A stretch of DNA of 64,000 bases from a phage. The first letter of the stretch is position 1; every line of letters begins with the position of its first letter. A program made the translations under genes and the position numbers. A model generated the notes under the pieces. The model saw only the letters and a program-made list of their open reading frames with translations. It was not told where the DNA came from and did no database searches. Below, piece by piece: positions 14,234 through 63,886 of this stretch. The stretch lies in sequence record PZ452582.1; one strand, given 5' to 3'.

Positions 14234-14299
14234 TTTTCACAAAACTGTTTACAAGACTGTTCTTCCATGGTACTATACAACTATCAACTACTGATACAG
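14234..14299 (+). promoter_or_regulatory. early promoter cassette (PeSL-type)
   Basis: GTTTAC 14247-14252, 17-nt spacer, TACTAT 14271-14276, then conserved leader ATCAACTACTGATACAG. Confidence 0.6.
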
Positions 14300-14313
14300 A
14301 TTTGGAGAATAAA

Positions 14314-14550
14314 ATGAAAATTGTTATGGGATGCTTAGCAGTTTGTTTAGTTGCATTAGCAGCAGTTCCATTTGTTAGTGTTGAAAATGATACTCAACCT
14401 GCGATTGAATCTAGCACCGTTATTCACACTAATGGTAAAATATCAGTTAAAATTGATGATAATCTTCATGTGAATACAAATGGATCTTTAGGTGTGCAAA
14501 TGGGTAATACCTGCATAAGCACTACTGGAGTAATTACTACTTGCATTTGA
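14314..14550 (+). CDS. small secreted or membrane protein
   Basis: 78 aa from ATG 14314; hydrophobic N-terminus MKIVMGCLAVCLVALAAVPFVS. Confidence 0.5.
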   Translation: MKIVMGCLAVCLVALAAVPFVSVENDTQPAIESSTVIHTNGKISVKIDDNLHVNTNGSLGVQMGNTCISTTGVITTCI

Positions 14551-14560
14551 GGAAATTATT

Positions 14561-14941
14561 ATGAAAATCGCTATTTTGGTTATTGCATTAGGTCTTACTG
14601 GTTGTGTAGCTCAAGGACCGGTAGTAAATCAGTCTGATGTAGGAAAAATTGTAAACTGTTCAAGCAAATTTTATAATCCTAATGTCAAGTGTTATAAAGA
14701 AGCTCCAAAGCAAACAGTAGAACAAATGCAGGCGAATTTTGACGAAGCTATTCGTCCAGATGAATCTGCTCAAGCATATCGTAATTCGGATGTAATTACA
14801 CGCGAAGAAAAAATTGAAAATTACTGCGCCGAGCTTTGGGCTAATTGGGCTAATAATTACCAATGGCGTACTGGTAAAAATGCTCCGATGGAGTATGTAG
14901 TGAATTCTTATAATTCATGTGTAAAAAATTTGACTAAGTGA
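14561..14941 (+). CDS. putative lipoprotein
   Basis: 126 aa; signal peptide with lipobox LTGC (MKIAILVIALGLTGCVAQ). Confidence 0.5.
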   Translation: MKIAILVIALGLTGCVAQGPVVNQSDVGKIVNCSSKFYNPNVKCYKEAPKQTVEQMQANFDEAIRPDESAQAYRNSDVITREEKIENYCAELWANWANNYQWRTGKNAPMEYVVNSYNSCVKNLTK

Positions 14942-14948
14942 GGAAAAT

Positions 14949-15263
14949 ATGGAAACTTTAGTAGCAGGTTCAATTTTTATGGTTTTAGTTTCAGGTGTGT
15001 TGGCTATTATTATATACATGCTTCCATGGTTTATTGCTTTGATGCGTGGGTCAAAATCGACAGTAGGAATCTTTTTCACATCTTTACTGTTTAACTGGTC
15101 AATTATTGGTTGGTTTATTACATTTATTTGGTCAATTGCGGGTGAAACTAAAAAGTCTGCACAACCAAATCAGGTAATTATCATCAGAGAGAGAAGGAAT
15201 GAAAAGCAAAATTATAGCAGTGTTGCTTTTAATCTTGATGATTATAATAAGTATATACTATAG
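14949..15263 (+). CDS. small integral membrane protein (possible Imm-like exclusion protein)
   Basis: 104 aa with two hydrophobic helices; lies between genes 43 and 42 where T4 imm sits. Confidence 0.5.
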   Translation: METLVAGSIFMVLVSGVLAIIIYMLPWFIALMRGSKSTVGIFFTSLLFNWSIIGWFITFIWSIAGETKKSAQPNQVIIIRERRNEKQNYSSVAFNLDDYNKYIL

Positions 15264-15355
15264 TGTAACGGTTCCTCTTATGATTCCGACTATTATTTTA
15301 GGTTGGAGCTTATTACTGTTACAAGTTAAATATGAATGTATCAATTGAGGTTTAA

Positions 15356-16096
15356 ATGATTAGTGACTCTATGACAGTTGAAGAAATCCGTCTTCATTTG
15401 GGGCTTGCATTAAAAGAAAAAGATTTCGTAGTTGATAAAACCGGTGTTAAAACTATTGAAATTATTGGCGCATCATTTGTAGCAGATGAACCGTTTATTT
15501 TTGGTGCTCTTAATGATGAATACATTCAGCGTGAACTTGAATGGTATAAATCTAAGAGCTTGTTCGTTAAAGATATTCCAGGTGAAACACCGAAGATTTG
15601 GCAACAAGTAGCATCTTCTAAAGGCGAAATTAACTCGAACTATGGTTGGGCTATTTGGTCAGAAGATAACTATGCCCAGTATGATATGTGTTTAGCTGAA
15701 CTTGGTCAAAATCCTGATTCTCGACGTGGTATCATGATTTATACTCGTCCATCCATGCAATTTGACTACAATAAAGATGGTATGTCAGATTTCATGTGTA
15801 CTAATACAGTACAGTACCTGATTCGTGATAAGAAAGTCAATGCAGTAGTAAGCATGCGCTCAAATGACGTGGTCTTCGGATTCCGTAATGATTATGCATG
15901 GCAAAAATACGTATTAGATAAATTAGTATCTGATTTGAATGCCGGCGATTCATCTCGTCAGTATAAAGCAGGTTCTATTATATGGAATGTCGGAAGTCTT
16001 CATGTATATTCTCGTCATTTTTACTTGGTTGATCATTGGTGGAATACTGGCGAAACTCATATTGTGAAAAAAGACTATAAAGGTGAGTGGAAATGA
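15356..16096 (+). CDS. 42: gp42 dCMP hydroxymethylase
   Basis: 246 aa MISDSMTVEEIRLHLGLALKEKDF...; T4 gp42 length; thymidylate-synthase-like fold. Confidence 0.93.
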   Translation: MISDSMTVEEIRLHLGLALKEKDFVVDKTGVKTIEIIGASFVADEPFIFGALNDEYIQRELEWYKSKSLFVKDIPGETPKIWQQVASSKGEINSNYGWAIWSEDNYAQYDMCLAELGQNPDSRRGIMIYTRPSMQFDYNKDGMSDFMCTNTVQYLIRDKKVNAVVSMRSNDVVFGFRNDYAWQKYVLDKLVSDLNAGDSSRQYKAGSIIWNVGSLHVYSRHFYLVDHWWNTGETHIVKKDYKGEWK

Positions 16097-16935
16097 TTCA
16101 ATTCGTAATTCCAAGTTATCAGCGTGTCAGGGCAGTTTCTGCCCTTGATATGTTTCCGACTGATTATGAACCGCATATTGTAGTGCGTGAACATGAAGAA
16201 AAAGCTTATCATGACGCTTATGGGTCTAGAGCTAAAATTATAACTATTCCTGATGATGTAAACGGAATTGCCGGTACTCGTAAAGCAATTACCGATATAT
16301 ATGCAGGTCAACGAATCTGGATGATTGACGATGATACTACTATTCGTATGAGTTCAATGCGAAAAAGAGATGATCGTCGTTGCGTAGATAAAGTCAATCA
16401 ATTGACTCGTGAACAGTTCTATGAATTGATTCAATATGTTGAGGATGCCATGGATTGCGGGTATTATCATGGCCATGCTCGTCTACCTATTTTTAAAATT
16501 ACTTCATCTTGGGGTAATTATCGTGAAAATTCATATGGATTCACGAATACATGGTATGACCTCGGAAAACTTACGACAGAACAAATTGGGTATGGAAAAA
16601 TTGATTTATGCGAAGATATGTATGCATTTCTCAATTTAATTAATCAAGGTTATCCGCATTTGGCCTTGTTCAAATATCTAGTTGTATCTGGAAAAGCACA
16701 AGCTCCTGGCGGGTGCAGTTCAATTCGTAGTAATTCTAAACATAATAGAGCGCTTGAGCAGATTAATAGAGAGTTTCCAGAGCAAGCTCGTTGGAAAACT
16801 TCTAATATTGAAAAACGAAAATCGTTGGGTGAAGAAGACGAACCATTAAAGGTTCTTCGCATGTGCGTTTCACGTAAAGAAAAATCAGAAGCATTTCATA
16901 AGTTTAATGCTATTCATCCAATAGCAGTTGATTAA
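16093..16935 (+). CDS. putative glycosyltransferase (DXD motif) in the beta-gt locus
   Basis: 280 aa from ATG 16093 (ATGA overlap with gene 42 stop); RIWMIDDDTTIR DXD-like motif; not the 351-aa T4 beta-gt. Confidence 0.6.
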   Translation: MIQFVIPSYQRVRAVSALDMFPTDYEPHIVVREHEEKAYHDAYGSRAKIITIPDDVNGIAGTRKAITDIYAGQRIWMIDDDTTIRMSSMRKRDDRRCVDKVNQLTREQFYELIQYVEDAMDCGYYHGHARLPIFKITSSWGNYRENSYGFTNTWYDLGKLTTEQIGYGKIDLCEDMYAFLNLINQGYPHLALFKYLVVSGKAQAPGGCSSIRSNSKHNRALEQINREFPEQARWKTSNIEKRKSLGEEDEPLKVLRMCVSRKEKSEAFHKFNAIHPIAVD

Positions 16936-17012
16936 TGCCTAAATTTATTGTGTTATAATTACTCTATCTTTAACCAGTGAGGAAAATATAATGATGCCTA
17001 TGGAAAAAATGA

Positions 17013-18194
17013 ATGTCTATTGCAGATTTAAAATCCCGTTTGATTAAAGCTTCCACTTCTAAAATGACTGCTGAACTGACTACATCTAAATTCTTTAATG
17101 AAAAGGATGTAATTCGTACAAAAATTCCAATGCTTAATATTGCTATTTCTGGTGCGATTGATGGCGGCATGCAGTCTGGTTTAACTATTTTCGCAGGGCC
17201 TTCTAAACACTTTAAATCAAATATGTCTTTGACTATGGTTGCGGCATATTTGAACAAATATCCTGACGCGGTTTGTCTATTCTATGATAGTGAATTTGGT
17301 ATTACTCCAGCTTATTTGCGATCCATGGGAGTTGACCCGGAACGAGTAATTCATACGCCGATTCAGTCAGTTGAACAGCTGAAAATTGATATGGTGAACC
17401 AGCTTGAAGCTATTGAGCGTGGTGAAAAGGTTATTGTATTCATCGACTCAATTGGTAATATGGCTTCTAAGAAAGAAACGGAAGATGCCTTGAATGAAAA
17501 ATCTGTGGCAGATATGACTCGTGCTAAATCACTGAAGTCATTATTCCGTATTGTTACTCCTTACTTTAGCATTAAAAATATTCCATGTGTTGCGGTTAAC
17601 CATACAATTGAAACAATTGAAATGTTTAGTAAAACCGTGATGACAGGTGGTACAGGCGTAATGTATTCGGCTGATACTGTATTCATTATCGGTAAGCGTC
17701 AGATTAAAGATGGTTCTGATCTTCAGGGGTATCAATTTGTTCTAAATGTAGAAAAATCTCGTACCGTTAAAGAAAAAAGTAAATTCTTTATTGATGTTAA
17801 ATTTGACGGTGGTATCGATCCTTATTCTGGATTGTTAGATATGGCTCTAGAATTAGGATTTGTAGTAAAACCTAAAAATGGTTGGTATGCTCGTGAATTT
17901 CTTGACGAAGAAACCGGCGAGATGATTCGCGAAGAAAAATCTTGGCGTGCAAAAGATACTAACTGCACTACATTCTGGGGTCCTTTATTTAAGCATCAAC
18001 CATTCCGAGATGCTATTAAGCGTGCTTATCAGTTAGGTGCTATTGATAGTAATGAAATTGTTGAAGCGGAAGTTGATGAATTAATTAACTCAAAGGTTGA
18101 AAAATTTAAATCCTCAGAAAGTAAAAGTAAATCAGCAGCTGATTTAGAAACTGACCTCGAGCAGTTAAGTGATATGGAAGAATTTAATGAATAA
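17013..18194 (+). CDS. uvsX: UvsX recombinase (RecA-like)
   Basis: 393 aa MSIADLKSRLIKASTSK...; RecA-like Walker A GPSKHFKS; position between 42 locus and 40/41. Confidence 0.95.
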   Translation: MSIADLKSRLIKASTSKMTAELTTSKFFNEKDVIRTKIPMLNIAISGAIDGGMQSGLTIFAGPSKHFKSNMSLTMVAAYLNKYPDAVCLFYDSEFGITPAYLRSMGVDPERVIHTPIQSVEQLKIDMVNQLEAIERGEKVIVFIDSIGNMASKKETEDALNEKSVADMTRAKSLKSLFRIVTPYFSIKNIPCVAVNHTIETIEMFSKTVMTGGTGVMYSADTVFIIGKRQIKDGSDLQGYQFVLNVEKSRTVKEKSKFFIDVKFDGGIDPYSGLLDMALELGFVVKPKNGWYAREFLDEETGEMIREEKSWRAKDTNCTTFWGPLFKHQPFRDAIKRAYQLGAIDSNEIVEAEVDELINSKVEKFKSSESKSKSAADLETDLEQLSDMEEFNE

Positions 18195-18531
18195 AGATGA
18201 TTTAGATTTAGATCTAGAAATTATCGATGAATCCCCCTCTTCGGAGGGGGAAGAAGAAAGAAAAGAACGTCTTTTTAATGAATCTCTTAAGATAATTAAA
18301 TCTGCCATGGAAAATGTTATCCAGGAGATTGTCATTAAACTAGAAGATGGTTCTACACATATAGTGTATGTAACTAAACTGGATTGGGTTGATGGAAAGG
18401 TTGTAATGGACTTTGCTGTTCTTGACCAAGAAAGAAAAGCTGAGTTAGCTCCTCATGTAGAAAAATGTATTACAATGCAACTACAAGATGCATTTAATAA
18501 AAGGTCAAAGAAAAAGTTTAAATTCTTTTAA
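18187..18531 (+). CDS. 40: gp40 (putative)
   Basis: 114 aa from ATG 18187 (track GTG 18169), between uvsX and 41 as in T4. Confidence 0.6.
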   Translation: MNKDDLDLDLEIIDESPSSEGEEERKERLFNESLKIIKSAMENVIQEIVIKLEDGSTHIVYVTKLDWVDGKVVMDFAVLDQERKAELAPHVEKCITMQLQDAFNKRSKKKFKFF

Positions 18532-18540
18532 GGAGTAAGT

Positions 18541-19968: not shown

Positions 19969-19997
19969 TTTACAAGCTGACAAGACTATGGTATAGT
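19968..19997 (+). promoter_or_regulatory. early promoter
   Basis: GTTTAC 19968-19973, 17-nt spacer, TATAGT 19992-19997, upstream of dmd. Confidence 0.55.
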
Positions 19998-20026
19998 AGT
20001 CTTGTTGGTTAAATGAGGAGATTGTT

Positions 20027-20209
20027 ATGGAATTGGTAAAGGTAGTTTTTATGGGGTGGTTTAAGAATGAAAGCATGTTTACTAAAGAAACCACAATGAT
20101 GAAAGATGACGTTCAATGGGCTACTACTCAATATGCTGAAGTTAATAAAGCATTAGTTAAAGCTTTCATTGATGACAAGAAAGTATGTGAAGTAGATTGC
20201 CGAGGATAA
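20027..20209 (+). CDS. dmd: Dmd antitoxin (inhibitor of host RnlA/LsoA toxins)
   Basis: 60 aa MELVKVVFMGWFKNESMFTKE...; length and position next to gene 41 as T4 61.5/dmd; sequence recall not fully certain. Confidence 0.75.
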   Translation: MELVKVVFMGWFKNESMFTKETTMMKDDVQWATTQYAEVNKALVKAFIDDKKVCEVDCRG

Positions 20210-20823: not shown

Positions 20824-21456
20824 ATGATTTATTATATGCACAAAAATCCACCGTTTAAATACGGTAAATTTCCTGATGCACAATGTTATAATATAACGCC
20901 TGATGAAAATAACCGTGGATATCTTATTGGCACAATTTTTGTAATTGTTAAAGATAACGAAATCGTTGCCTGGGCAGATTTTAAAGGTACAACACATGAT
21001 GTTAATCCGGTGCCTTTCACATATTACAATATAATGGATTTGGCATATGATTATAATTGGTTTAATCATGACACGTTGGCTCATATTGAAGGTGTAGGAT
21101 TTGACATCTCTTATTCTAGCTACTCATTGTGTCCTATGAGTCGGGCTCATAAAGAACCTGAATATTTTTCATTTAGGAAACGTGTAAACTTTAAACGCAA
21201 CACAGAGTATGTCGGTGGAATATTTGTTAAAGATAATCGAATTATTCGTATTAATTATCCTTTGAGCGTTAGTCAAAAAGATATTGATGTTGATTTAGAT
21301 TTCACTGAAAATAATATTAATCATATTGCTTCTGTGTATTTTGGTATCGATCACAAAATTGTAATATGTGGATATGAATTACCGTTTGAAGAACAGCCTA
21401 AAGTAAATGTTTCTATTGATGACCAAATTTTTAATGCTTTTATGAATAAAGGTTAA
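20824..21456 (+). CDS. hypothetical protein (61.2 position)
   Basis: 210 aa from ATG 20824; C-terminal tail SIDDQIFNAFMNKG shared with the next ORF. Confidence 0.55.
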   Translation: MIYYMHKNPPFKYGKFPDAQCYNITPDENNRGYLIGTIFVIVKDNEIVAWADFKGTTHDVNPVPFTYYNIMDLAYDYNWFNHDTLAHIEGVGFDISYSSYSLCPMSRAHKEPEYFSFRKRVNFKRNTEYVGGIFVKDNRIIRINYPLSVSQKDIDVDLDFTENNINHIASVYFGIDHKIVICGYELPFEEQPKVNVSIDDQIFNAFMNKG

Positions 21457-21460
21457 TATG
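21412..21460 (+). repeat. 49-bp direct repeat, copy 1
   Basis: tctattgatgaccaaatttttaatgcttttatgaataaaggttaatatg; near-identical copy at 21770-21818. Confidence 0.85.
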
Positions 21461-21814
21461 TATAGTTCTGAATTTTCATATTTAAAAATGGAAAAAATTT
21501 CATACGATTTTATAGATGAAAAGGTTTATTACAGTTTCCATGAACCACGTTTTAATAGTGAGGTTGGGTTTATTGTAGTAAAAGACAATTTTATTTTAAA
21601 AATATATTCAGCATTAAAGGATTTTCATTACGAAAATATTAACCTAAAATTTAATAAAGAAAACGTTCGTAATTGCGCAGTAACAATTACGGGAAATAAA
21701 GGTACATGTGTTATGCTATCTGATGAAATTAATGATTTGCTAAATGATGCAGAAAATATTACTGCACCATCTATTGATGACCAAATTTTTAATGCTTTTA
21801 TGAATAGAGGTTAA
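21458..21814 (+). CDS. hypothetical protein (61.1 position)
   Basis: 118-aa ORF bounded on both sides by the 49-bp direct repeat. Confidence 0.5.
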   Translation: MYSSEFSYLKMEKISYDFIDEKVYYSFHEPRFNSEVGFIVVKDNFILKIYSALKDFHYENINLKFNKENVRNCAVTITGNKGTCVMLSDEINDLLNDAENITAPSIDDQIFNAFMNRG

Positions 21815-21818
21815 TATG
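21770..21818 (+). repeat. 49-bp direct repeat, copy 2
   Basis: One mismatch to copy 1 (AGA versus AAA); spans the last 13 codons, the stop and the next start. Confidence 0.85.
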
Positions 21819-23308: not shown

Positions 23309-24648
<1,340 letters not shown>

Positions 24649-25889: not shown

Positions 25890-25895
25890 ATGCAA

Positions 25896-25918
25896 GGACT
25901 CCTTCGGGAGTCCTTTTT
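25896..25918 (+). terminator. intrinsic terminator GGACTCC-TTCG-GGAGTCC-TTTTT
   Basis: 7-bp stem, UUCG loop, T5 tail right after soc. Confidence 0.75.
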
Positions 25919-25928
25919 CATTTAAACG

Positions 25929-27017: not shown

Positions 27018-27348
27018 ATGGTTCAATAGACCAAACTCAATGTATATTGACGATGGTTGGGTTGAACAAGCAAATAAAGAAATGCAGAACGAATCGGAAG
27101 AATGGATGAAATCAATGATTAGTGCTGAGAAAGAAAAGAAATTAGAACGCTCAGCGCTTAAATTGATGAGAGACATCTATGGTGATAAATCATGAGCAAA
27201 GATATGACATTGGAAGAGGCTAAAGCAAAAGCAAATGAAGCAATGGATTTGCTTCTTAAAATTGGTAGTAAAATGATGGAAGAAAATGAGAAATATATCC
27301 AGGAAAATAAAATTCCTGACGGTCCATTAGTAGGCAAAAGGAAATCAC

Positions 27349-28021: not shown

Positions 28022-28051
28022 GTTTACTTTCCTTTCTAACGATGATATGAT
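28022..28051 (+). promoter_or_regulatory. early promoter
   Basis: GTTTAC 28022-28027, 17-nt spacer, TATGAT 28046-28051. Confidence 0.5.
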
Positions 28052-28077
28052 AGCTTCTGAAGTATACGGAGGCTATC

Positions 28078-28701
28078 ATGATTATTAATCCTGCAGATGT
28101 TGAACAGTTATCTATAAAAGCTGAAAGCGTTGATTTTCAATATGATATGTATAAAAAAGTCTGTGAAAAATTTACTGACTTCGAGCAGTCTGTTCTTTGG
28201 CAATGTATGGAAGCCAAAAAGAATGAAGCTCTTCACAGACAGTTGAATAAAATCATTAAAAAGCATTTAACTAAATCGCCTTATCAATTATATCGTGGTA
28301 TATCAAAATCGACAAAAGAACTTATTAAAGATTTACAGGTTGGAGAAGTGTTTTCAACGAACAGGGTAGATTCATTTACTACTAGTTTACACACAGCGTG
28401 TTCTTTTTCTTATGCTGAATATTTCACTGAAACAATACTTCATTTAAAAACTGATAAAGCTTTTAATTATTCTGACCATATCAGCGATATTATACTTTCT
28501 TCTCCTAATACTGAGTTTAAGTATACATATGAAGATACTGATGGATTAGATTCAGAGCGTACTGATAACTTAATGATGATTGTGCATGAACAAGAATGGA
28601 TGATTCCAATTGGAAAGTATAAAATAACTTCTATTTCAAAAGAAAAATTACACGATTCATTTGGAACATTTAAAGTTTATGATATTGAGGTAATTGAATG
28701 A
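28078..28701 (+). CDS. modB: ModB-like ADP-ribosyltransferase
   Basis: 207 aa; R-S-EXE pattern (YRG ... STN ... EQEWMIP); tandem with modA-like paralog. Confidence 0.75.
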   Translation: MIINPADVEQLSIKAESVDFQYDMYKKVCEKFTDFEQSVLWQCMEAKKNEALHRQLNKIIKKHLTKSPYQLYRGISKSTKELIKDLQVGEVFSTNRVDSFTTSLHTACSFSYAEYFTETILHLKTDKAFNYSDHISDIILSSPNTEFKYTYEDTDGLDSERTDNLMMIVHEQEWMIPIGKYKITSISKEKLHDSFGTFKVYDIEVIE

Positions 28702-33220: not shown

Positions 33221-33250
33221 GTTTACTTCCTCGGTTAGTTGTGGTATTAT
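33221..33250 (+). promoter_or_regulatory. early promoter
   Basis: GTTTAC 33221-33226, 17-nt spacer, TATTAT 33245-33250. Confidence 0.5.
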
Positions 33251-33277
33251 AACACCATAGCTACTGAGGATAATAAA

Positions 33278-34794: not shown

Positions 34795-34891
34795 AGTTTA
34801 AAATTTTTTCATAAAACTATATACATCAGTAGTTGATTATGGTACTATATCAATATCAACTACTGATACAGAAAATAACTTGGAGAATAAA

Positions 34892-36366: not shown

Positions 36367-36627
36367 ATGAAATATATTAATCGTTCTATCGCAGCATTAG
36401 TATTAGCAGTGTCTTTAGCAGGATGTACTGATGCTGATAATGCAACCAAAATTTTGTCATCAAGCGGTTTTACTAATATTGAAATCACTGGATACAATTG
36501 GTTCGGTTGCTCTGAAAATGATTTCCAACATACTGGATTTCGCGCTATTGGACCTACCGGGCAGAAAGTAGAAGGAACCGTATGTTCTGGTCTATTCTTC
36601 AAGGATTCGACTATCCGTTTTAAATAA
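36367..36627 (+). CDS. putative lipoprotein
   Basis: 86 aa; signal peptide with lipobox LAGC (MKYINRSIAALVLAVSLAGCTD). Confidence 0.5.
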   Translation: MKYINRSIAALVLAVSLAGCTDADNATKILSSSGFTNIEITGYNWFGCSENDFQHTGFRAIGPTGQKVEGTVCSGLFFKDSTIRFK

Positions 36628-36644
36628 AAGGCCTTCGGGCCTTT
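36628..36644 (+). terminator. terminator hairpin AAGGCC-TTCG-GGCCTT
   Basis: GC stem with UUCG loop; followed by the AGCTTTA ... TATAAT cassette also seen at 2801-2826. Confidence 0.6.
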
Positions 36645-36696
36645 AGCTTTATGATTACCGGAGTATAATATTCCCGAAACCAAACGAGGATAAGTG

Positions 36697-38514
36697 ATGA
36701 TTAAGAATGAAATTAAAATTCTGAGCGATATTGAACATATCAAAAAGCGTAGCGGCATGTACATTGGCTCTTCTGCTAATGAAATGCATGAGCGCTTTCT
36801 GTTTGGTAAATGGGAAAGTGTTCAGTATGTACCTGGTCTTGTTAAGCTTATTGATGAAATTATCGATAACTCAGTAGATGAAGGTATTCGTACTAAGTTT
36901 AAATTCGCAAATAAAATTAATGTTACTATCAAAAACAATCAAGTAACAGTTGAAGATAACGGTCGTGGTATTCCACAAGCGATGGTTAAAACACCTACTG
37001 GTGAAGAAATTCCTGGTCCTGTTGCTGCCTGGACTATTCCAAAAGCAGGTGGTAATTTCGGTGATGATAAAGAACGTGTCACTGGCGGTATGAACGGTGT
37101 TGGTTCTAGTTTAACTAACATTTTTTCTGTGATGTTTGTCGGTGAAACTGGCGACGGTCAAAATAATATTGTAGTTCGTTGTTCAAATGGCATGGAAAAT
37201 AAATCATGGGAAACTATTCCTGGAAAATGGAAAGGAACTCGTGTTACTTTCATTCCTGATTTTATGTCATTTGAAACTAATGAGCTATCTCAAGTTTATC
37301 TTGACATTACGCTAGATCGTCTCCAGACACTTGCAGTAGTTTATCCTGATATTCAATTTACCTTTAATGGTAAAAAGGTTCAGGGCAATTTTAAGAAATA
37401 TGCACGCCAATATGATGAGCATGCTATTGTTCAAGAACAAGAAAATTGTTCTATTGCGGTTGGTCGTTCACCGGATGGTTTTCGTCAATTAACTTATGTG
37501 AATAACATTCACACTAAGAATGGTGGCCATCACATTGACTGTGTTATGGATGATATTTGTGAAGACCTTATTCCACAAATCAAACGTAAGTTCAAAATTG
37601 ATGTAACTAAAGCACGTGTTAAAGAATGTTTGACTATCGTTATGTTTGTTCGTGATATGAAAAACATGCGATTTGATTCTCAAACTAAAGAGCGTTTGAC
37701 TTCTCCATTTGGCGAAATTCGTAGTCATATTCAACTTGACGCTAAAAAGATTTCACGCGCTATTCTAAATAATGAAGCAATTCTGATGCCGATTATTGAA
37801 GCTGCTTTGGCTCGTAAATTGGCGGCAGAAAAAGCAGCAGAAACTAAAGCAGCTAAAAAGGCTTCTAAAGCTAAGGTTCATAAACATATTAAAGCGAATC
37901 TTTGCGGTAAAGATGCTGACACTACATTGTTTTTGACTGAGGGTGATTCTGCTATCGGATATCTTATTGATGTTCGTGATAAAGAACTTCATGGTGGTTA
38001 TCCATTGCGTGGTAAAGTTCTCAACAGTTGGGGTATGTCATATGCTGATATGCTTAAAAACAAAGAACTGTTTGATATTTGCGCAATCACTGGATTAGTT
38101 CTTGGTGAAAAAGCTGAAAACTTGAATTATCATAATATTGCTATTATGACCGATGCTGACCATGATGGTCTAGGAAGCATTTATCCTTCTCTGCTCGGGT
38201 TTTTTAGTAATTGGCCAGAATTGTTTGAGCAAGGACGAATTCGCTTTGTCAAAACTCCTGTAATCATCGCTCAGGTCGGTAAAAAACAAGAATGGTTTTA
38301 TACAGTCGCTGAATATGAGAGTGCCAAAGATGCTCTACCTAAACATAGCATCCGTTATATTAAGGGACTTGGCTCTTTGGAAAAATCTGAATATCGTGAG
38401 ATGATTCAAAATCCAGTATATGATGTTGTTAAACTTCCTGAGAACTGGAAAGAGCTTTTTGAAATGCTCATGGGAGATAATGCTGACCTTCGTAAAGAAT
38501 GGATGAGCCAGTAG
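36697..38514 (+). CDS. 39: gp39 topoisomerase II large (ATPase) subunit, unsplit
   Basis: 605 aa from ATG 36697; GyrB-like GHKL and TOPRIM regions in one ORF (T4 splits this into 39 plus 60). Confidence 0.93.
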   Translation: MIKNEIKILSDIEHIKKRSGMYIGSSANEMHERFLFGKWESVQYVPGLVKLIDEIIDNSVDEGIRTKFKFANKINVTIKNNQVTVEDNGRGIPQAMVKTPTGEEIPGPVAAWTIPKAGGNFGDDKERVTGGMNGVGSSLTNIFSVMFVGETGDGQNNIVVRCSNGMENKSWETIPGKWKGTRVTFIPDFMSFETNELSQVYLDITLDRLQTLAVVYPDIQFTFNGKKVQGNFKKYARQYDEHAIVQEQENCSIAVGRSPDGFRQLTYVNNIHTKNGGHHIDCVMDDICEDLIPQIKRKFKIDVTKARVKECLTIVMFVRDMKNMRFDSQTKERLTSPFGEIRSHIQLDAKKISRAILNNEAILMPIIEAALARKLAAEKAAETKAAKKASKAKVHKHIKANLCGKDADTTLFLTEGDSAIGYLIDVRDKELHGGYPLRGKVLNSWGMSYADMLKNKELFDICAITGLVLGEKAENLNYHNIAIMTDADHDGLGSIYPSLLGFFSNWPELFEQGRIRFVKTPVIIAQVGKKQEWFYTVAEYESAKDALPKHSIRYIKGLGSLEKSEYREMIQNPVYDVVKLPENWKELFEMLMGDNADLRKEWMSQ

Positions 38515-41938: not shown

Positions 41939-42133
41939 ATGTTAGGTTATCAAGCACGAGTAAAAGAAGAATACGATCAATTAATGCTCAAAATTAATGC
42001 ACTGAGCAAATTTTTAGAAAGTACAAAGTTTCTAACGATTAATGAAGTTGAGCAAGAATTACTGCTTTCACAGTTCATCTCAATGAAATCTTACGCAGAT
42101 TGTTTAGAAAAAAGAATTGCACAATTCAAATAA
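41939..42133 (+). CDS. hypothetical protein
   Basis: 64-aa ORF after rIIB. Confidence 0.4.
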   Translation: MLGYQARVKEEYDQLMLKINALSKFLESTKFLTINEVEQELLLSQFISMKSYADCLEKRIAQFK

Positions 42134-42136
42134 AAT

Positions 42137-42160
42137 AAGGGGCTTCGGCCCTTTTGTTTT
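42137..42160 (+). terminator. intrinsic terminator GGGGC-TTCG-GCCC-TTTTGTTTT
   Basis: GC stem, UUCG loop, T-rich tail. Confidence 0.65.
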
Positions 42161-42171
42161 AAGGAAAAATT

Positions 42172-43065: not shown

Positions 43066-43329
43066 ATGAAATTTAAATTTTATTACGCTAAACATAAAAT
43101 AACTGATGAGTTTGTGTCAGTTGAATATTCTAGCGATGATGAAGGCATGATTTATACTCGCTTGGGACTATCGCATTGGGAGTCTGATACGCCTTATTTT
43201 TCAACTCCCGAAGAAATTACACGCTTAGTTAATGGTCATATGAATGACCACTGGTGTGTAATTCTTTCAGATAGTCTTAAAGCGGCTATTAATAGTAATG
43301 AAATGAAAATCGCTGAGATTGAACTATGA
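43066..43329 (+). CDS. hypothetical protein
   Basis: 87 aa from ATG 43066 after GGAGG. Confidence 0.45.
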   Translation: MKFKFYYAKHKITDEFVSVEYSSDDEGMIYTRLGLSHWESDTPYFSTPEEITRLVNGHMNDHWCVILSDSLKAAINSNEMKIAEIEL

Positions 43330-43514
43330 GTTCATTGTGGTGGTGTTTTGTTTGGTTAATTAGTATTCCATTAATTTGTTTAACATTTACTTTTGTAATG
43401 AGGTTATTATGAAAATTTTGAATTCTGTACTTATTGCTTGTGCATGGTGGGTTGCGCAAGTTTCAGCGGTAGTAGTTGGTATTCACATTTATTACGAATA
43501 TTTTTAAAAAAGTT

Positions 43515-43544
43515 GTTTACAAGACTGTTCCTCTGTGGTATTAT
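43515..43544 (+). promoter_or_regulatory. early promoter
   Basis: GTTTAC 43515-43520, 17-nt spacer, TATTAT 43539-43544. Confidence 0.5.
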
Positions 43545-43572
43545 TACCCTATCAACTACGGAGGAACAGAAA

Positions 43573-44281: not shown

Positions 44282-44737
44282 ATGAAATACATGACTGTTA
44301 CTGATCTGAATAATGCAGGTGCTACTGTTATTGGTACAATCAAGGGCGGTGAATGGTTTTTGGGAACTCCACACAAAGATATTTTATCTAAACCTGGATT
44401 TTACTTTTTAGTGAGTAAACTCGATGGTCCATTTGATAGTCCATGCGTATCTGCACGATTTTATGTAGGTAATCAGCGTTCTAAGCAAGGGTTCAGTGCA
44501 GTTCTAAGTCATATTCGTCAACGTCGGTCTCAGCTTGCGCGTACTATTGCAAATAACAATGTTCCATACACGGTATTTTATTTGCCTGCTTCTAAGATGA
44601 AACCTTTGACGACAGGATTTGGAAAAGGTCAGTTAGCTTTAGCGTTTACTCGTAATCATCATTCTGAGTATCAAACACTTGAAGAAATGAACCGTATGTT
44701 GGCTGATAACTTTAAATTTGTTTTGCAGGCATACTAA
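44282..44737 (+). CDS. ndd: Ndd nucleoid disruption protein
   Basis: 151 aa, T4 Ndd length; position between denB region and stp/52. Confidence 0.88.
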
Positions 44738-44910
44738 TGAAAGCTCTATTTGTAATGGGTTACCTATTAGTTTTAGCCTTATTCACATTGACTGGAATCT
44801 TTACAGCTTTAGGTCTACCTCTTAATGATAATGTGGCTGTCGTGATGTGTGTAGGTGGCGGATTTATCTGTTTTGAACGTTTATGCAAAATGTGTGGTGT
44901 GTATGAGTAA
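44737..44910 (+). CDS. small membrane protein (possibly ac-like)
   Basis: 57-aa hydrophobic ORF; stop overlaps stp start. Confidence 0.35.
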
Positions 44911-46761: not shown

Positions 46762-46766
46762 TTTTA

Positions 46767-46792
46767 GGGAGAGCCTCGGCTCTCCCTTTTTT
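46767..46792 (+). terminator. intrinsic terminator GGGAGAGC-CTCG-GCTCTCCC-TTTTTT
   Basis: 8-bp GC-rich stem followed by T6. Confidence 0.75.
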
Positions 46793-46822
46793 ATTTCAAA
46801 AAAAAAAAAAATTCACAAAACG

Positions 46823-59600: not shown

Positions 59601-60510
59601 GTAAACGTGCTTTACTGTCCCCGTCAAACAATCTCCATAATTTCTCATTATCATCAAACATCAAGAAACCGTCAATCGATGTACGGCCTTCAATGGAATG
59701 AGTTCCATCTTCTTGTACTGATGTTGTTTCATCATATGTCGTAACAATTGTATGATAAAGTGGATTTAGTTTATCCAAATCAACGAAATTAATAATATCG
59801 CCATGATTAGCAAATCTTGGAAGTTTAATATTTATCGGTGCAGCAGAAGTAAATCTACGTACGATAAAATCGTTGGATTGCGCTTGATAAGTATTCGCTG
59901 GTGTTACAACTACAGCTTCTCTACTATAATCAGCTACATACATTTGCCACAGACGATTACTAAAAATTAAAACTAGCTGTGACTTTGGATGAGTCATTAG
60001 TACTGAACGTACTTGTTCACCTCTGAAGTTTACAATACTTTGCACCGGAGCTACAATTAAAACTTGGTTAACTCCAGGTTTTCCTCCAATATCTTGGAGA
60101 ACGATAGTATCACCATCAATTGGAGAAGATGGTAAAGTAAATGTAATATCATTACCAGCTGCGGTGTTAACCGAAATAGCTTCACCGGATTTTAATTGAT
60201 ATGAACCAGATGAAACCGTAATCCAGTTAGCATCGGTACGTAATGCTCTCCAGCGTCCGCTATTAAAAGCTCCTGCCGGTTTTGGAATATCATTTATAGC
60301 AGCCCAAAAGCGGTTATCATAAATGATTACAAAATCTTTTAAATATCCACGAGTTGGATCATATTGTTGAACTGTGTTTTCTTGAATTAAGTAATCAACG
60401 TTAACACCGTCAGTTCCTACGGTACGATCAGCTAAAGCTACGTTGATTATTTTATCACCACCTGCGTCCAGACCATCTTCTGCTCTGAACTTTCTTTTAA
60501 TCTCGGCCAT
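56641..60510 (-). CDS. 34: gp34 long tail fibre proximal subunit
   Basis: 1289 aa (T4 gp34 length); repetitive beta-rich sequence. Confidence 0.92.
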   Translation of the reverse strand: MAEIKRKFRAEDGLDAGGDKIINVALADRTVGTDGVNVDYLIQENTVQQYDPTRGYLKDFVIIYDNRFWAAINDIPKPAGAFNSGRWRALRTDANWITVSSGSYQLKSGEAISVNTAAGNDITFTLPSSPIDGDTIVLQDIGGKPGVNQVLIVAPVQSIVNFRGEQVRSVLMTHPKSQLVLIFSNRLWQMYVADYSREAVVVTPANTYQAQSNDFIVRRFTSAAPINIKLPRFANHGDIINFVDLDKLNPLYHTIVTTYDETTSVQEDGTHSIEGRTSIDGFLMFDDNEKLWRLFDGDSKARLRIITTNSNIRPNEEVMVFGANNGTTQTIELQLPTNISVGDTVKISMNYMRKGQTVKIKAAGEDKIASSVQLLQFPKRSEYPPEAEWVTVQELVFNGETNYVPVLQLAYIEDSDGKYWVVQQNVPTVERVDSLNDSTRARLGVIALATQAQANVDLENSPQKELAITPETLANRTATETRRGIARIATTAQVNQNTTFSFADDIIITPKKLNERTATETRRGVAEIATQQETNAGTDDTTIITPKKLQARQGSESLSGIVTFVSTAGATPASSRELNGTNVYNKNTNNLVVSPKALDQYKATPTQQGAVILAVESEVIAGQSQEGWANAVVTPETLHKKTSTDGRIGLIEIATQSEVNTGTDYTRAVTPKTLNDRRATESLSGIAEIATQVEFDAGVDDTRISTPLKIKTRFNSTDRTSVVALSGLVESGTLWDHYTLNILEANETQRGTLRVATQVEAAAGTLDNVLITPKKLLGTKSTESQEGVIKVATQSETVTGTSANTAVSPKNLKWIVQSEPTWAATTAIRGFVKTSSGSITFVGNDTVGSTQDLELYEKNSYAVSPYELNRVLANYLPLKAKAADTNLLDGLDSSQFIRRDIAQTVNGSLTLTQQTNLSAPLVSSSTATFGGSVSANSTLTISNTGTATRLIFEKGPQTGTNPAQTMTIRVWGNQFGGGSDTTRSTVFEVGDETSNHFYSQRNKAGNITFSINGTVMPINVNASGSLNANGVATFGSSVTANGEFISKSANAFRAINGDYGFFIRNDAANTYFMLTASGDQTGGFNGLRPLAINNASGQVTIGESLIIAKGATINSGGLTVNSRIRSQGTKTSDLYTRAPTSDTVGFWSIDINDSATYNQFPGYFKMVEKTNEVTGLPYLERGEEVKSPGTLTQFGNTLDSLYQDWITYPTTPEARTTRWTRTWQKTKNSWSSFVQVFDGGNPPQPSDIGALPSDNATMGNLTIRDFLRIGNVRIIPDPVNKTVKFEWVE

Positions 60511-60544
60511 TCTCCCGGGCTCCTATTGTGTTTTCAATAATAAG

Positions 60545-60552
60545 TATTTATA
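60545..60552 (-). promoter_or_regulatory. late promoter TATAAATA for gene 34
   Basis: Exact TATAAATA on the minus strand about 35 nt upstream of gene 34 ATG. Confidence 0.6.
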
Positions 60553-60555
60553 CTT

Positions 60556-60585
60556 GTTTACTTTAAGATTTGGATGGTATATAAT
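60556..60585 (+). promoter_or_regulatory. early-type promoter upstream of rnh
   Basis: GTTTAC 60556-60561 and TATATAAT 60578-60585; divergent from the gene 34 late promoter. Confidence 0.45.
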
Positions 60586-60614
60586 AGAAATCTCACTAAT
60601 TGAACGAGGTTCAT

Positions 60615-61532
60615 ATGGATTTAGAAATGATGCTGGATGAAGACTACAAAGAAGGAATTTGCTTTATTGACTTTAGTCAAATTGCGCTTTCAACTGCTTT
60701 AGTAAACTTCCCAGATAAAGAAAAAATTAATTTATCAATGGTTCGTCATTTGATATTGAACTCAATTAAGTTTAATGTCAAAAAAGCAAAAACTCTTGGA
60801 TACACTAAAATTGTATTGTGTATTGATAACGCGAAATCTGGATACTGGCGTCGTGATTTCGCGTATTATTATAAGAAAAACCGTGGAAAAGCACGAGAAG
60901 AATCTACTTGGGACTGGGAAGGTTATTTTGAATCTAGCCATAAAGTTATAGATGAATTGAAAGCTTATATGCCATACATTGTTATGGATATTGATAAGTA
61001 TGAAGCAGATGACCACATTGCTGTTCTTGTTAAAAAGTTCTCTTTAGAAGGACACAAGATTTTAATCATTTCATCGGATGGTGACTTTACACAGCTTCAT
61101 AAATATCCAAATGTTAAGCAATGGTCCCCGATGCATAAGAAATGGGTTAAAATTAAAAGCGGTTCTGCTGAAATTGACTGTATGACTAAAATCCTTAAAG
61201 GCGACAAAAAGGATAACGTTGCTTCAGTTAAAGTACGATCTGACTTTTGGTTTACCAGAGTTGAAGGTGAACGAACTCCTTCAATGAAAACTTCAATCGT
61301 TGAAGCTATTGCTAATGACCGTGAGCAAGCTAAGGTGCTTCTCACAGAATCTGAATATAATCGTTATAAAGAAAATTTAGTTCTAATTGATTTTGATTAT
61401 ATTCCTGATAATATTGCTTCAAACATTGTGAATTACTATAATTCATATAAATTACCACCGCGTGGCAAAATTTATTCATATTTTGTAAAAGCGGGTCTTT
61501 CTAAATTAACTAATAGCATTAATGAATTTTGA
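60615..61532 (+). CDS. rnh: RNase H (FEN-1-like 5-prime nuclease)
   Basis: 305 aa from ATG 60615 (MDLEMMLDEDYKEGICFIDFSQIAL...); T4 RNase H length. Confidence 0.92.
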   Translation: MDLEMMLDEDYKEGICFIDFSQIALSTALVNFPDKEKINLSMVRHLILNSIKFNVKKAKTLGYTKIVLCIDNAKSGYWRRDFAYYYKKNRGKAREESTWDWEGYFESSHKVIDELKAYMPYIVMDIDKYEADDHIAVLVKKFSLEGHKILIISSDGDFTQLHKYPNVKQWSPMHKKWVKIKSGSAEIDCMTKILKGDKKDNVASVKVRSDFWFTRVEGERTPSMKTSIVEAIANDREQAKVLLTESEYNRYKENLVLIDFDYIPDNIASNIVNYYNSYKLPPRGKIYSYFVKAGLSKLTNSINEF

Positions 61533-61540
61533 GGTGAATA

Positions 61541-61810
61541 ATGGCTAAAAAAGAAATGGTTGAATTTGATGAAGCTATCCATGGCGAAGACTTGGCTAAA
61601 TTTATTAAAGAAGCATCTGATCATAAACTGAAAATTTCCGGTTATAATGAACTGATTAAAGATATTCGAATTCGTGCCAAAGATGAACTTGGCGTTGATG
61701 GTAAGATGTTTAATCGTCTATTAGCTTTGTATCATAAAGATAACCGTGATGTGTTTGAAGCTGAAACTGAAGAGGTAGTTGAACTTTATGACACAGTTTT
61801 CTCTAAATGA
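61541..61810 (+). CDS. dsbA: DsbA double-stranded DNA-binding protein (putative)
   Basis: 89 aa, between rnh and 33; T4 DsbA length. Confidence 0.75.
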   Translation: MAKKEMVEFDEAIHGEDLAKFIKEASDHKLKISGYNELIKDIRIRAKDELGVDGKMFNRLLALYHKDNRDVFEAETEEVVELYDTVFSK

Positions 61811-62126
61811 TATTCGTCCGGTCGATGAGACCGGTCTTTCAGAAAAAGAACTTTCAATCAAGAAAGAAAAGGATGAAATAGCAAAGCTTCTTGATCGTCA
61901 AGAAAATGGATTTATTATTGAAAAAATGGTAGAAGAGTTTGGAATGAGTTATCTTGAAGCTACGACAGCATTCTTAGAAGAAAACTCTATTCCTGAAACT
62001 CAATTTGCTAAATTTATTCCTTCGGGTATAATTGAAAAAATTCAGTCAGAAGCTATTGACGAAAATCTTTTACGTCCTTCTGTTGTTCGTTGTGAAAAAA
62101 CTAATACATTAGATTTTCTACTATGA
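61788..62126 (+). CDS. 33: gp33 late-transcription co-activator
   Basis: 112 aa from ATG 61788 (MTQFSLNDIRPVDETGLSEKEL...). Confidence 0.85.
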   Translation: MTQFSLNDIRPVDETGLSEKELSIKKEKDEIAKLLDRQENGFIIEKMVEEFGMSYLEATTAFLEENSIPETQFAKFIPSGIIEKIQSEAIDENLLRPSVVRCEKTNTLDFLL

Positions 62127-62776
62127 TTAAACTCCGCATGCCTGCTGGTGGTGAAAGATACATTGATGGTAAATCAGTTTATAAATTATACTTAATGATA
62201 AAACAACATATGAATGGAAAGTATGATGTTATTAAGTATAATTGGTGCATGCGGGTGTCTGATGCCGCTTATCAAAAGCGAAGGGATAAGTATTTTTTCC
62301 AGAAGTTATCAGAAAAATATAAATTAAAGGAACTTGCTTTAATCTTTATAAGCAATTTGGTTGCTAACCAAGATGCTTGGATTGGTGACATCTCTGACGC
62401 TGATGCACTTGTGTTTTATCGTGAATATATCGGACGTTTAAAGCAAATTAAATTTAAGTTTGAAGAAGATATTCGCAACATTTATTATTTTAGTAAAAAA
62501 GTTGAAGTTTCTGCTTTTAAAGAAATCTTTGAGTATAATCCAAAAGTTCAATCAAGTTATATTTTTAAACTACTTCAATCGAATATAATTTCGTTTGAGA
62601 CGTTTATCTTGCTTGATTCGTTTTTAAATATAATTGATAAACATGATGAACAAACTGATAATTTAGTTTGGAACAATTATTCTATAAAGTTAAAAGCTTA
62701 TAGAAAAATTTTAAATATCGATTCACAGGAAGCTAAAAAAGTTTTTATTGAAACTGTGAAATCTTGTAAGTATTAA
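62123..62776 (+). CDS. 59: gp59 helicase loader
   Basis: 217 aa MIKLRMPAGGERYIDGKSVYKLYLMIKQHM...; T4 gp59 length. Confidence 0.92.
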   Translation: MIKLRMPAGGERYIDGKSVYKLYLMIKQHMNGKYDVIKYNWCMRVSDAAYQKRRDKYFFQKLSEKYKLKELALIFISNLVANQDAWIGDISDADALVFYREYIGRLKQIKFKFEEDIRNIYYFSKKVEVSAFKEIFEYNPKVQSSYIFKLLQSNIISFETFILLDSFLNIIDKHDEQTDNLVWNNYSIKLKAYRKILNIDSQEAKKVFIETVKSCKY

Positions 62777-62784
62777 TTGCTTAT

Positions 62785-62792
62785 TATAAATA
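62785..62792 (+). promoter_or_regulatory. late-promoter consensus TATAAATA upstream of gene 32
   Basis: Exact TATAAATA 84 nt upstream of gene 32 ATG. Confidence 0.4.
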
Positions 62793-62809
62793 AATTATAA
62801 TTATCTCAC

Positions 62810-62875
62810 TGACCAGCTATGAGGTCATACATCGTCATAGCACCAACTGTTAATTAAATTAAAAAGGAAATAAAA
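62810..62875 (+). promoter_or_regulatory. gene 32 autoregulatory translational operator (pseudoknot plus AU-rich leader)
   Basis: Stem 1 TGACC/GGTCA (62810-14 with 62823-27), stem 2 CTATGA/TCATAG (62817-22 with 62835-40), then AU-rich tract to ATG 62876. Confidence 0.65.
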
Positions 62876-63784
62876 ATGTTTAAACGTAAATCTACTGCTG
62901 AACTCGCTGCACAAATGGCTAAACTGGCTGGAAATAAAGGTGGTTTTTCTTCTGAAGATAAAGGCGAGTGGAAACTGAAACTCGACAATGCGGGTAACGG
63001 TCAAGCAGTAATTCGTTTTCTTCCGTCTAAAAATGATGAACAAGCACCATTCGCAATTCTTGTAAATCACGGTTTCAAGAAAAATGGTAAATGGTATATT
63101 GAAAACTGTTCATCTACCCACGGTGATTACGATTCTTGCCCAGTATGTCAGTACATCAGTAAAAATGATTTATACAACACTGACAATAAAGAGTACGGTC
63201 TTGTTAAACGTAAAACTTCTTACTGGGCTAACATTCTTGTTGTAAAAGACCCAGCTGCTCCAGAAAACGAAGGTAAAGTATTTAAATATCGTTTCGGTAA
63301 GAAAATCTGGGATAAAATCAATGCAATGATTGCAGTTGATGTTGAAATGGGTGAAACTCCAGTTGATGTAACTTGTCCGTGGGAAGGTGCTAACTTTGTA
63401 CTGAAAGTTAAACAGGTTTCTGGATTTAGTAACTACGACGAATCTAAATTCCTGAATCAATCTGCGATTCCAAACATTGACGATGAATCTTTCCAGAAAG
63501 AACTGTTCGAACAAATGGTTGACCTTTCTGAAATGACTTCTAAAGATAAATTCAAATCGTTTGAAGAACTGAGCACTAAATTCGGTCAAGTCATGGGAAC
63601 TGCTGTGATGGGCGGTGCCGCTGCAACTGCTGCTAAGAAAGCTGATAAAGTTGCTGATGATTTGGATGCATTCAATGTTGATGACTTCAATACAAAAACT
63701 GAAGATGATTTTATGAGCTCAAGCTCTGGCAGTTCATCTAGTGCTGATGACACGGACCTAGATGACCTTTTGAATGACCTTTAA
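62876..63784 (+). CDS. 32: gp32 single-stranded DNA-binding protein
   Basis: 302 aa [37 protein letters not shown]...; zinc site and acidic Ser/Asp-rich C-terminus. Confidence 0.96.
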
Positions 63785-63806
63785 TAGATTATATTACTAA
63801 TTAATT

Positions 63807-63831
63807 GGGGACCTCTAGGGTCCCCTTTTTT
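63807..63831 (+). terminator. intrinsic terminator GGGGACC-TCTAG-GGTCCCC-TTTTTT
   Basis: 7-bp GC stem followed by T6 after gene 32. Confidence 0.75.
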
Positions 63832-63856
63832 ATTTCAAAAATTTTTTCACAAAACG

Positions 63857-63886
63857 GTTTACATCCTTGTTCTTCCGTGGTACTAT
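63857..63886 (+). promoter_or_regulatory. early promoter cassette
   Basis: GTTTAC 63857-63862, 17-nt spacer, TACTAT 63881-63886; same cassette as 14247, 43009 and 46823. Confidence 0.55.

Follow-up and report, generated by a model that had tools for sequence, protein, structure and literature searches.

The window analysed here is a 64-kb stretch of phage DNA (64,000 nucleotides; sequence record PZ452582.1) in which a promoter cassette recurs 17 times upstream of early genes. The window is 97–98% identical to many T2/T6-type Tequatrovirus genomes, relatives that carry beta-glucosyl-HMC-alpha-glucosyltransferase. Its gene order follows the reverse complement of the T4 map. The window starts at gene 55 (about 40.2 kb in T4), runs through gene 43, uvsX, 41, 61, dam, modA/B, dda, dexA, motB, 39, and rIIA/B, and continues past the T4 map origin with ndd, 52, motA, asiA, the tail-fibre genes (opposite strand), rnh, and gene 32. 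The early genes lie on the plus strand, in regions of 31–37% GC. Gene names were taken from the T4 annotation. Promoter features are lacking in both the GenBank and the RefSeq records of T4, and our literature search found no genome-wide map of T4 start sites; the T4 orthologues of the cassettes were located by scanning syntenic T4 sequence with a weight matrix derived from the window, not from promoter tables. Rfam, searched at gathering thresholds, returned nothing in the window.

All 17 cassettes are on the plus strand, and each is named here for the position of its -35 hexamer. P14247 (14225–14316; T4 orthologue at 27080) would drive a 78-amino-acid (aa) open reading frame (ORF) followed by imm.1 and imm; it consists of an upstream A/T tract resembling a UP element, GTTTAC, TGG-TACTAT, a leader containing GGAGAATAAAA, and ATG. 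P19968 (19946–20029; T4 20612) stands 5' of dmd, its GTTTAC overlapping the stop codon of gene 41, and P20471 (20449–20531; T4 20109) stands 5' of sp (spackle). P23254 (23232–23311), which would drive a 186-aa ORF and dam, has no T4 counterpart. P25929 (25907–25987; T4 15288) is found 5' of mrh.2, past the soc terminator, P28022 (28000–28080; T4 13186) 5' of modB, and P29357 (29335–29424; T4 11851) 5' of srd. Upstream of motB.2 is P33221 (33199–33280), whose T4 orthologue at 8218 is, going by its name, presumably the studied promoter P8.1. P34229 (34207–34305; T4 7215) precedes motB, and P34819 (34797–34894; T4 6630), which has ATATAC at -35, precedes an 89-aa ORF and cef. P38514 (38492–38571; T4 2458) lies 5' of rIIA.1, with its GTTTAC overlapping the stop codon of the fused gene 39+60. 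In the variable region between ndd and denB, P43009 (42987–43068; T4 167086) stands 5' of an 87-aa ORF; P43515 (43493–43575; T4 166807) stands 5' of a 37-aa ORF. P46823 (46801–46896; T4 163673) precedes motA, and P49288 (49266–49351; T4 161211) precedes asiA from within the asiA.1 coding region. The last two are P60556 (60534–60617; T4 150763), 5' of rnh and divergent from tail-fibre gene 34, and P63857 (63835–63932; T4 146875), 5' of frd.3 and past the gene 32 terminator.

A first-pass annotation of the window, made from the letters alone, had listed 15 -35 coordinates; GTTTAC, a 17-nt spacer, and a -10 box are present at all 15. Its count of about 16 copies fell slightly short, since scanning with a weight matrix derived from the sites yields 17 strong copies, the two omitted ones being at 34819 and 49288. 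The same scan finds no copy on the minus strand and none within the first 14 kb of the window. The pattern GTTTACW-N14-TGGTAYTAT, with up to two mismatches, has 15 matches in the window against 0.17 expected from shuffled sequences (about 90-fold), and none of 100 shuffles reached 15; two of these matches (9643 and 34819) are without an exact GTTTAC. The motif search proposed with the first-pass annotation thus maps the copies to a single strand at a frequency far above chance. A generic sigma-70 pattern is not enriched over shuffles; therefore, the signal is that of an extended, phage-specific consensus of the T4 type.

Several features define the family. GTTTAC is exact in 16 of the 17 copies, the 17-nt spacing is the same in every copy, and a TG precedes the -10 box in 14 (the exceptions are P20471, P34229, and P60556). 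The -10 box itself varies as TA(C/T)(T/A/G)AT or TATAGT. Upstream of GTTTAC, the tract has the consensus AAAAAATTTTCAAAAAATT, with an information content above background; four cassettes that overlap coding sequence, P19968, P34229, P38514, and P49288, have a weaker tract. The distance from the -35 G to the start codon is 55–74 nt in each cassette. An independent repeat search returned the cassettes as the top direct-repeat families of the window (D1, seven copies of 67 nt; D3, six copies of 42 nt), and in families D1, D3, and D10 the promoter, an AT-rich tract, the Shine-Dalgarno (SD) sequence, and the start codon recur as one unit. The longer shared stretches noticed earlier at 14234, 42997, 46811, and 63845 are real and correspond to family D1. 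To call the copies near-identical, as the first-pass annotation did, is nevertheless too strong, since the copies are 61–79% identical to the reference copy across 67 nt and most of the spacers between -35 and -10 differ.

What are these elements? The consensus of T4 early promoters has GTTTAC at -36 to -31, an A-rich segment at -40 to -44 resembling a UP element, a GT-rich stretch ahead of the -10 box, and conserved A-11 and T-7 (PMC1524935); they have been termed "UP/-35/TGn/-10" promoters (PMC2988021). Because the window motif agrees with this published consensus, lies on one strand, and has a matching site at the orthologous T4 position for 16 of the 17 cassettes, the cassettes are very probably sigma-70-dependent early promoters (Pe) of a Tequatrovirus. 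The genes downstream are classic early genes: imm.1/imm, dmd, sp, mrh.2, modB, srd, motB.2, motB, cef, rIIA.1, the ORFs of the ndd region, motA, asiA, rnh, and frd.3. The nonconsensus -35 hexamer of P34819 (ATATAC) and the lack of the extended -10 TG in P34229 and P60556 speak against such an assignment. That the sites are instead chance matches, or middle promoters dependent on MotA, seems vanishingly improbable. Promoter-like matches of a generic kind are indeed common in AT-rich DNA such as that of the early regions. Yet the excess over shuffled sequences, the restriction to one strand, and the fixed distance to start codons all argue against chance; moreover, the -35 element is GTTTAC rather than a MotA box (TGCTT centred at -30, PMC2988021), and a separate promoter with a MotA box is visible 5' of gene 56. 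The early-promoter reading already given in the first-pass annotation is thus right, and it is already known, textbook T4 biology.

Each cassette would accordingly be read as a composite unit of UP-like tract, GTTTAC(A/T), 17-nt spacer, extended -10 element (TGn), and TAnnnT, followed by a short leader with a GGAG or GAGG SD sequence and the start codon of an early gene. T4 early promoters outcompete host promoters and fire without phage proteins, stimulated in part by ADP-ribosylation by Alt (PMC2988021). By orthology with T4, where experiments showed this mechanism, we infer that host RNA polymerase would fire the cassettes of the window at once after infection, with no phage protein required. 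The UP-like tract would be a site for the C-terminal domains of the polymerase alpha subunits, and the additional recognition elements would allow the cassettes to outcompete host promoters. Initiation at these sites in the window phage is likewise predicted by analogy.

Four cassettes are preceded by terminator-like hairpins, all on the plus strand. After gene 43, AGGGACC-UCCG-GGUCCCU and a U-run occupy 14143–14168 (hairpin 14143–14160), 86 nt 5' of the -35 hexamer of P14247. After soc, a hairpin with a true C(UUCG)G loop and a U-run occupies 25894–25923 (hairpin 25894–25915), 14 nt 5' of the -35 hexamer of P25929. The third follows motA.1 at 46766–46795 (hairpin 46766–46787), with the loop CUCG and a U-run, 5' of P46823, and the fourth follows gene 32 at 63807–63833 (hairpin 63807–63825), where GGGGACCU-CUA-GGGUCCCC and a U-run lie 5' of P63857. 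With 7–9 pairs, 5–6 of them GC, and then T-runs, the four would qualify as intrinsic terminators. They make up most of the six or seven strong terminator-like hairpins on the plus strand of the window. At these cassettes, one transcription unit would end and the next would restart. The first-pass annotation had placed cassettes "often" after terminators and had named three of the hairpins as having UUCG loops. The hairpins and their T-runs are present and the association is real, but it extends to only 4 of the 17 cassettes (P14247, P25929, P46823, and P63857), and the loops of the three are UCCG, CUCG, and CUA; the true C(UUCG)G hairpin, after soc, was not on its list. A second repeat family (D4), unrelated to the cassette terminators, consists of a 30-nt element at 2779–2808, 9184–9213, 36622–36651, and 42132–42161. 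It reads AAAATAAAGGGC-UUCG-GCCCUUUAGCUUUA, a C(UUCG)G hairpin at gene ends; the copies are 77–90% identical to each other, and some are terminator-like on both strands.

Similarity among the cassettes extends beyond the promoter core. The leaders share segments such as CAACTATCAACTAC(T/G)GA. In the leaders of P14247 and P34819, GGAGAATAAAATG matches the cleavage consensus of RegB/S1, and GGAGAATAAAA, also present in both, fits it in the form GGAGRAYARAA; cleavage at GG*AGRAYARAA inactivates early mRNAs (PMC3014915). Part of the similarity past the core would come from such leader signals (SD and the RegB/S1 consensus), and part from exchange between cassettes. A reading in which the likeness arose purely by functional convergence, through selection for maximal promoter strength with neither shared descent nor exchange, would agree with the information profile, whose most conserved columns are known RNA polymerase contact elements, with the mostly differing spacers, and with the stability of cassette positions across genomes. 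We nonetheless consider it very unlikely. Spacers at different loci share more than expected by chance (12 of 15 positions between P14247 and P43515, 11 of 15 between P38514 and P43009; p of about 0.002 against shuffles), and over the stretch between the -10 region and the end of the fourth codon, the T4 cassettes at 27.08 kb and 167.09 kb agree at 56 of 57 nt. In addition, the same spacer and leader types occur at two loci, both of which are polymorphic for them. Some of the similarity between cassettes is thus not a requirement of function.

Exchange between cassettes recalls a published model. Promoter-early stem-loops (PeSLs) were defined in RB49 and phi1 (Arbiol et al. 2010, PMC2839356) and extended to T4 and PST with the consensus TTTACW-N17-TAYWAT (Comeau et al. 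2014, PMC4122927); gene shuffling by PeSLs is accordingly not new, having been published for T4/PST in 2014. In its strongest form, the model would make the cassettes mobile regulatory modules and the principal driver of the gain, loss, and exchange of small ORFs in hyperplastic regions. To evaluate this, we compared the window with T4, T2, AV119, YUEEL01, CJY920, PYps47T, SYGD1, and ECO78. Chained BLAST alignments over window positions 7000–49600 yielded 33 distinct indel or replacement events, and a breakpoint was assigned to a promoter junction when it fell between -40 and +90 of the -35 G.

At the sequence level, cassettes delimit five or six events, which involve P14247, P20471, P23254, P34229, P43009, and the motA locus. 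The slot after P14247 has no ORF in T4 and SYGD1, the 78-aa ORF in the window and others, and an unrelated 83-aa ORF in T2 and ECO78. In ECO78, CJY920, and SYGD1, a module of promoter plus 255-nt ORF is found just 5' of P20471, flanked by AAAATAG..GTTTAC repeats. Neither P23254 nor its 186-aa ORF is present in T4, and PYps47T, SYGD1, and ECO78 lack both together with dam. The slot after P43009, which corresponds to the ndd-denB exchange shown for T4/PST (PMC4122927), holds zero, one, or two alternative ORFs among the relatives. AV119, YUEEL01, and PYps47T have an extra ORF and a second, diverged cassette between P46823 and motA, with 23-nt repeats at the flanks, and the endpoint of a T2 deletion is exactly at the -35 hexamer of P34229. 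The motA module occurs in 138 database records and the sp module in 71, always at one place per record. At P14247, both spacer types occur with both leader types (window/T4, AV119, ECO78, and T2). These four haplotypes imply crossovers within the conserved core of about 25 nt, or repeated conversion. For recombination between cassettes that would yield deletions or mini-circles, this mosaic and the direct cassette repeats on either side of two modules are indirect evidence. As a by-product of its promoter role, the core would occasionally serve as a recombination joint at which small modules of promoter plus ORF are gained, lost, or swapped.

Two of these slots hold ORFs that deserve a description of their own. 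The 186-aa ORF after P23254 (23309–23869, plus strand; phrog_8706) adjoins dam (23869–24648). It is absent from T4, which keeps dam, and was lost jointly with dam in the three relatives named above. It has a weak, subthreshold Pfam match to the DpnII restriction endonuclease family (E value of 0.004, 16.9 bits, cut-off 23). GATC, when unmethylated, is the cutting site of DpnII; it is also the site that Dam methylates. No sequence in the PDB matches the ORF, and a fold search would need a better model than its single-sequence AlphaFold prediction (pLDDT of 53.8). In T4, the slot after the orthologue of P43009 has an 8-codon mini-ORF, MKIAEIEL (167025–166997), with an ATGA overlap with the next gene. 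The same eight codons end the 87-aa ORF of the window (43297–43330), and the T4 mini-ORF looks like a deletion remnant that may preserve translational coupling.

Does the strongest form of the model hold for the region as a whole? The individual cases, the polymorphic motA and sp modules, the four spacer and leader combinations at P14247, the excess of spacer sharing between loci, and the precedent in T4/PST (PMC4122927) all favor it. The counts are less supportive. Breakpoints were found at 9 of 15 promoter junctions against 23 of 64 other junctions (odds ratio [OR] of 2.7; one-sided Fisher p=0.08), and variability was seen in 4 of 15 genes directly after a cassette against 12 of 65 other genes (p=0.35), so the association between cassettes and indels in the eight-relative sample is weak. 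Of the nine events next to promoters, two have no relation to the cassette: a deletion within an ORF at a GAAAATT microhomology and a homing-endonuclease insertion with a duplicated target. Most indels in the comparison involve homing endonucleases or repeats outside the cassettes; many are seg or mob genes, and a 49-nt repeat at 21412/21770 is an example of the repeats. No family of first ORFs occurs at two cassette loci in the nine genomes, each being confined to a single locus, and the number and positions of the cassettes are conserved across all genomes examined. Given both sides, we regard a principal role of the cassettes in this variation as possible though somewhat doubtful. The cassettes appear to be occasional recombination joints at fixed slots, and they are, on this comparison, neither demonstrably mobile elements nor the main source of variation in the region. 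The earlier idea that they serve as portable homology for modular gene shuffling is therefore borne out for individual cases, namely modules flanked by cassette repeats and the four-haplotype mosaic, but not as a general rule; similarly, comparing gene content between relatives reveals cassette-bounded events without making the first genes significantly more variable. PeSL shuffling thus holds event by event and is not the dominant source of gene-content difference here, which tempers an often-repeated claim.

The 49-nt direct repeat (21412–21460 and 21770–21818, 98% identical, at two gene ends) flanks a 118-aa ORF (21458–21814). This ORF is missing in T4, CJY920, and PYps47T, and the alignments overlap there by exactly 49 nt; the indel appears to be repeat mediated, with no promoter cassette involved. 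Matches to the core pattern in viral contigs were set aside: among those listed, most were single hits in unrelated contigs and probably due to chance.

Hairpins of a different kind are found over the promoters themselves. We folded 70 nt starting 10 nt ahead of each -35 G and compared the result with 200 shuffles. In six cassettes, a strong hairpin spans the -10 box, with z scores from -3.7 to -6.0, and 0 of 200 shuffles folded as well. P19968 has a 14-bp hairpin (19976–19989 with 19996–20009; z = -4.3) that encloses the -10 box, as do the hairpin of P34229 (34237–34271, GGGACC...GGUCCC; z = -3.8) and the 18-pair hairpin of P34819 (34825–34867; z = -6.0). At P28022, the -10 region pairs with the SD sequence and AUG in a 14-bp hairpin (28046–28080; z = -3.7); at P33221, the spacer pairs with the leader and SD sequence in one of 17 pairs (33228–33270; z = -5.3); and at P43515, the spacer pairs with the SD sequence in one of 15 bp (43525–43569, GGAGGAACAG; z = -5.4). 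A z score of -3 or lower was obtained for 6 of 17 cassettes against 0 of 64 equivalent regions 5' of other genes (Fisher p=4e-5), and the -10-spanning hairpins are thus statistically clear. The hairpin contains the predicted transcription start. Its 5' arm is formed by the promoter spacer and its 3' arm by the leader in most of the six cassettes; at P28022, the -10 region forms the 5' arm. The whole SD sequence is paired to pre-start sequence at P33221, at P43515, and in a weaker hairpin at P23254; at P28022, this applies to both the SD sequence and AUG. P38514 has a small spacer hairpin (ACCACA...UGUGGU). Overall, four cassettes have a terminator upstream, six a -10-spanning hairpin, two a small spacer hairpin, and about five none. 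The label "PeSL-like" given to the cassettes by the first-pass annotation is apt, but the terminator stem-loops that it cited accompany only four copies, and the -10-spanning hairpins in six copies were overlooked. A PeSL subclass with a stem-loop overlapping the -10 box has been described for RB49 and phi1 (PMC2839356), whereas the T4/PST study placed the stem-loops 5' of the promoter (PMC4122927).

One reading of these hairpins is that they distinguish transcripts by origin. The leader and SD sequence would be paired with pre-start sequence (the -10 region at P28022, the spacer elsewhere). RNA reading through from upstream would then hide the ribosome-binding site (RBS) or be attenuated, whereas transcripts started by the cassette itself would be without the 5' arm and be translated. 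The folding statistics, the comparison with control regions, the position of the start inside the hairpin, and the pairing of the SD sequence at P33221, P43515, and P23254 and of SD plus AUG at P28022 are consistent with this reading. There is also precedent both in the RB49/phi1 stem-loops over the -10 box (PMC2839356) and in T4, where the leaders of e, soc, 49, and I-TevI form an RBS-sequestering hairpin with the promoter inside (PMC3014915). The P43515 hairpin is 96.7% paired across eight distinct sequences, and among its 14 internal pairs all changes but one are switches between C-G and U-G. A covariation test on these eight sequences found no compensatory change on both sides of a pair, and covariation did not rise above that of shuffles; the structure is conserved, yet not proven, and the evidence of selection on it is limited.

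Other observations weigh against such a role. Among close relatives, about as many stem substitutions in the other hairpins preserve the stem as weaken it, the SD sequence is not included in three of the six strong hairpins, and haplotypes that form the hairpin coexist at P14247 with haplotypes that do not. In RB69, of a different genus, the Tequatrovirus matrix finds two sites and a looser pattern four, none of which has a strong hairpin, in a sample too small for a conclusion. The dyads could also function as DNA elements or simply reflect the history of the cassettes. Selective translation according to transcript origin is a plausible but unproven proposal that we think less likely than not. 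We would offer only as speculation, and an unlikely one, the wider statement that about one-third of Tequatrovirus early promoters are built within a hairpin whose 5' arm is pre-start sequence and whose 3' arm is usually the RBS of the gene itself, with own transcripts translated, read-through silenced or attenuated, and whole cassettes exchanged as units. Under selection by transcript origin, the spacer and leader must stay complementary; therefore, cassettes would be exchanged whole, which, if true, would explain the spacer sharing and the mosaic haplotypes.

Outside the cassettes, the window differs from T4 in several insertions. Two homing-endonuclease genes (phrog_655) are found at 4425–5279 and 7617–8504, both on the plus strand (E values of 8e-45 and 4e-33), between genes 47 and 46 and between rpbA and gene 45, respectively; neither is present in T4. 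Conversely, the T4 genes mobB, segA, segF, mobA, and segG are all absent from the window. The topoisomerase large subunit (36694–38514, plus strand) is encoded by one fused 606-aa gene (39+60), without the mobA insertion and without the gene 60 bypass arrangement of T4. CJY920 has a different endonuclease-like insertion at the 3' end of its topoisomerase large-subunit gene, with a duplicated target. Between ndd and stp/ac, a 57-aa ORF (phrog_5941; 44737–44910, plus strand) is missing in all eight comparators, with the same breakpoints in each.

For annotation, the gain is 17 predicted early transcription starts and four predicted terminators, for a genome whose database relatives are without promoter features; recognition of the promoters does not in itself change our understanding. 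Compared with the early promoters of T4 (Hinton 2010, PMC2988021; Nolan et al. 2006, PMC1524935), the cassettes have the same elements, spacing, orientation, and position before early genes, with no essential difference: only P23254 and its ORF are without a T4 counterpart, and the copies in the window are known from sequence. Like the PeSLs (PMC2839356 and PMC4122927), they combine an AT-rich tract, an early promoter, and SD/ATG, often with a stem-loop, they fit TTTACW-N17-TAYWAT, and they lie in variable early regions near some indels or replacements. They differ from PeSLs in that only about 10 to 12 of the 17 have a stem-loop and in that the association with indels in the eight-relative sample is modest. 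Lambdoid morons (promoter-ORF-terminator) also insert small ORFs with their own promoters between conserved genes, but the modules of the window occupy fixed slots and mostly have no terminator of their own; Nolan et al. (PMC1524935) had already argued against regarding the novel ORFs of T4-like phages as moron-like.

The only element that is mildly new is the promoter-embedded, RBS-pairing hairpin in a T-even-type genome; to our knowledge, hairpins that span the -10 box and pair with the RBS have not been described for this group. The closest likeness is to the T4 e, soc, 49, and I-TevI leaders. As in these, the hairpins at P33221, P43515, P28022, and P23254 have the predicted start inside and the SD sequence in the 3' arm, so only read-through RNA would form them. 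The difference lies in timing: in T4, the internal promoter is late and the read-through early, whereas in the window, both would be early, at sites predicted from sequence. If functional, the hairpins would extend this principle of T4 translational control from late to early genes.

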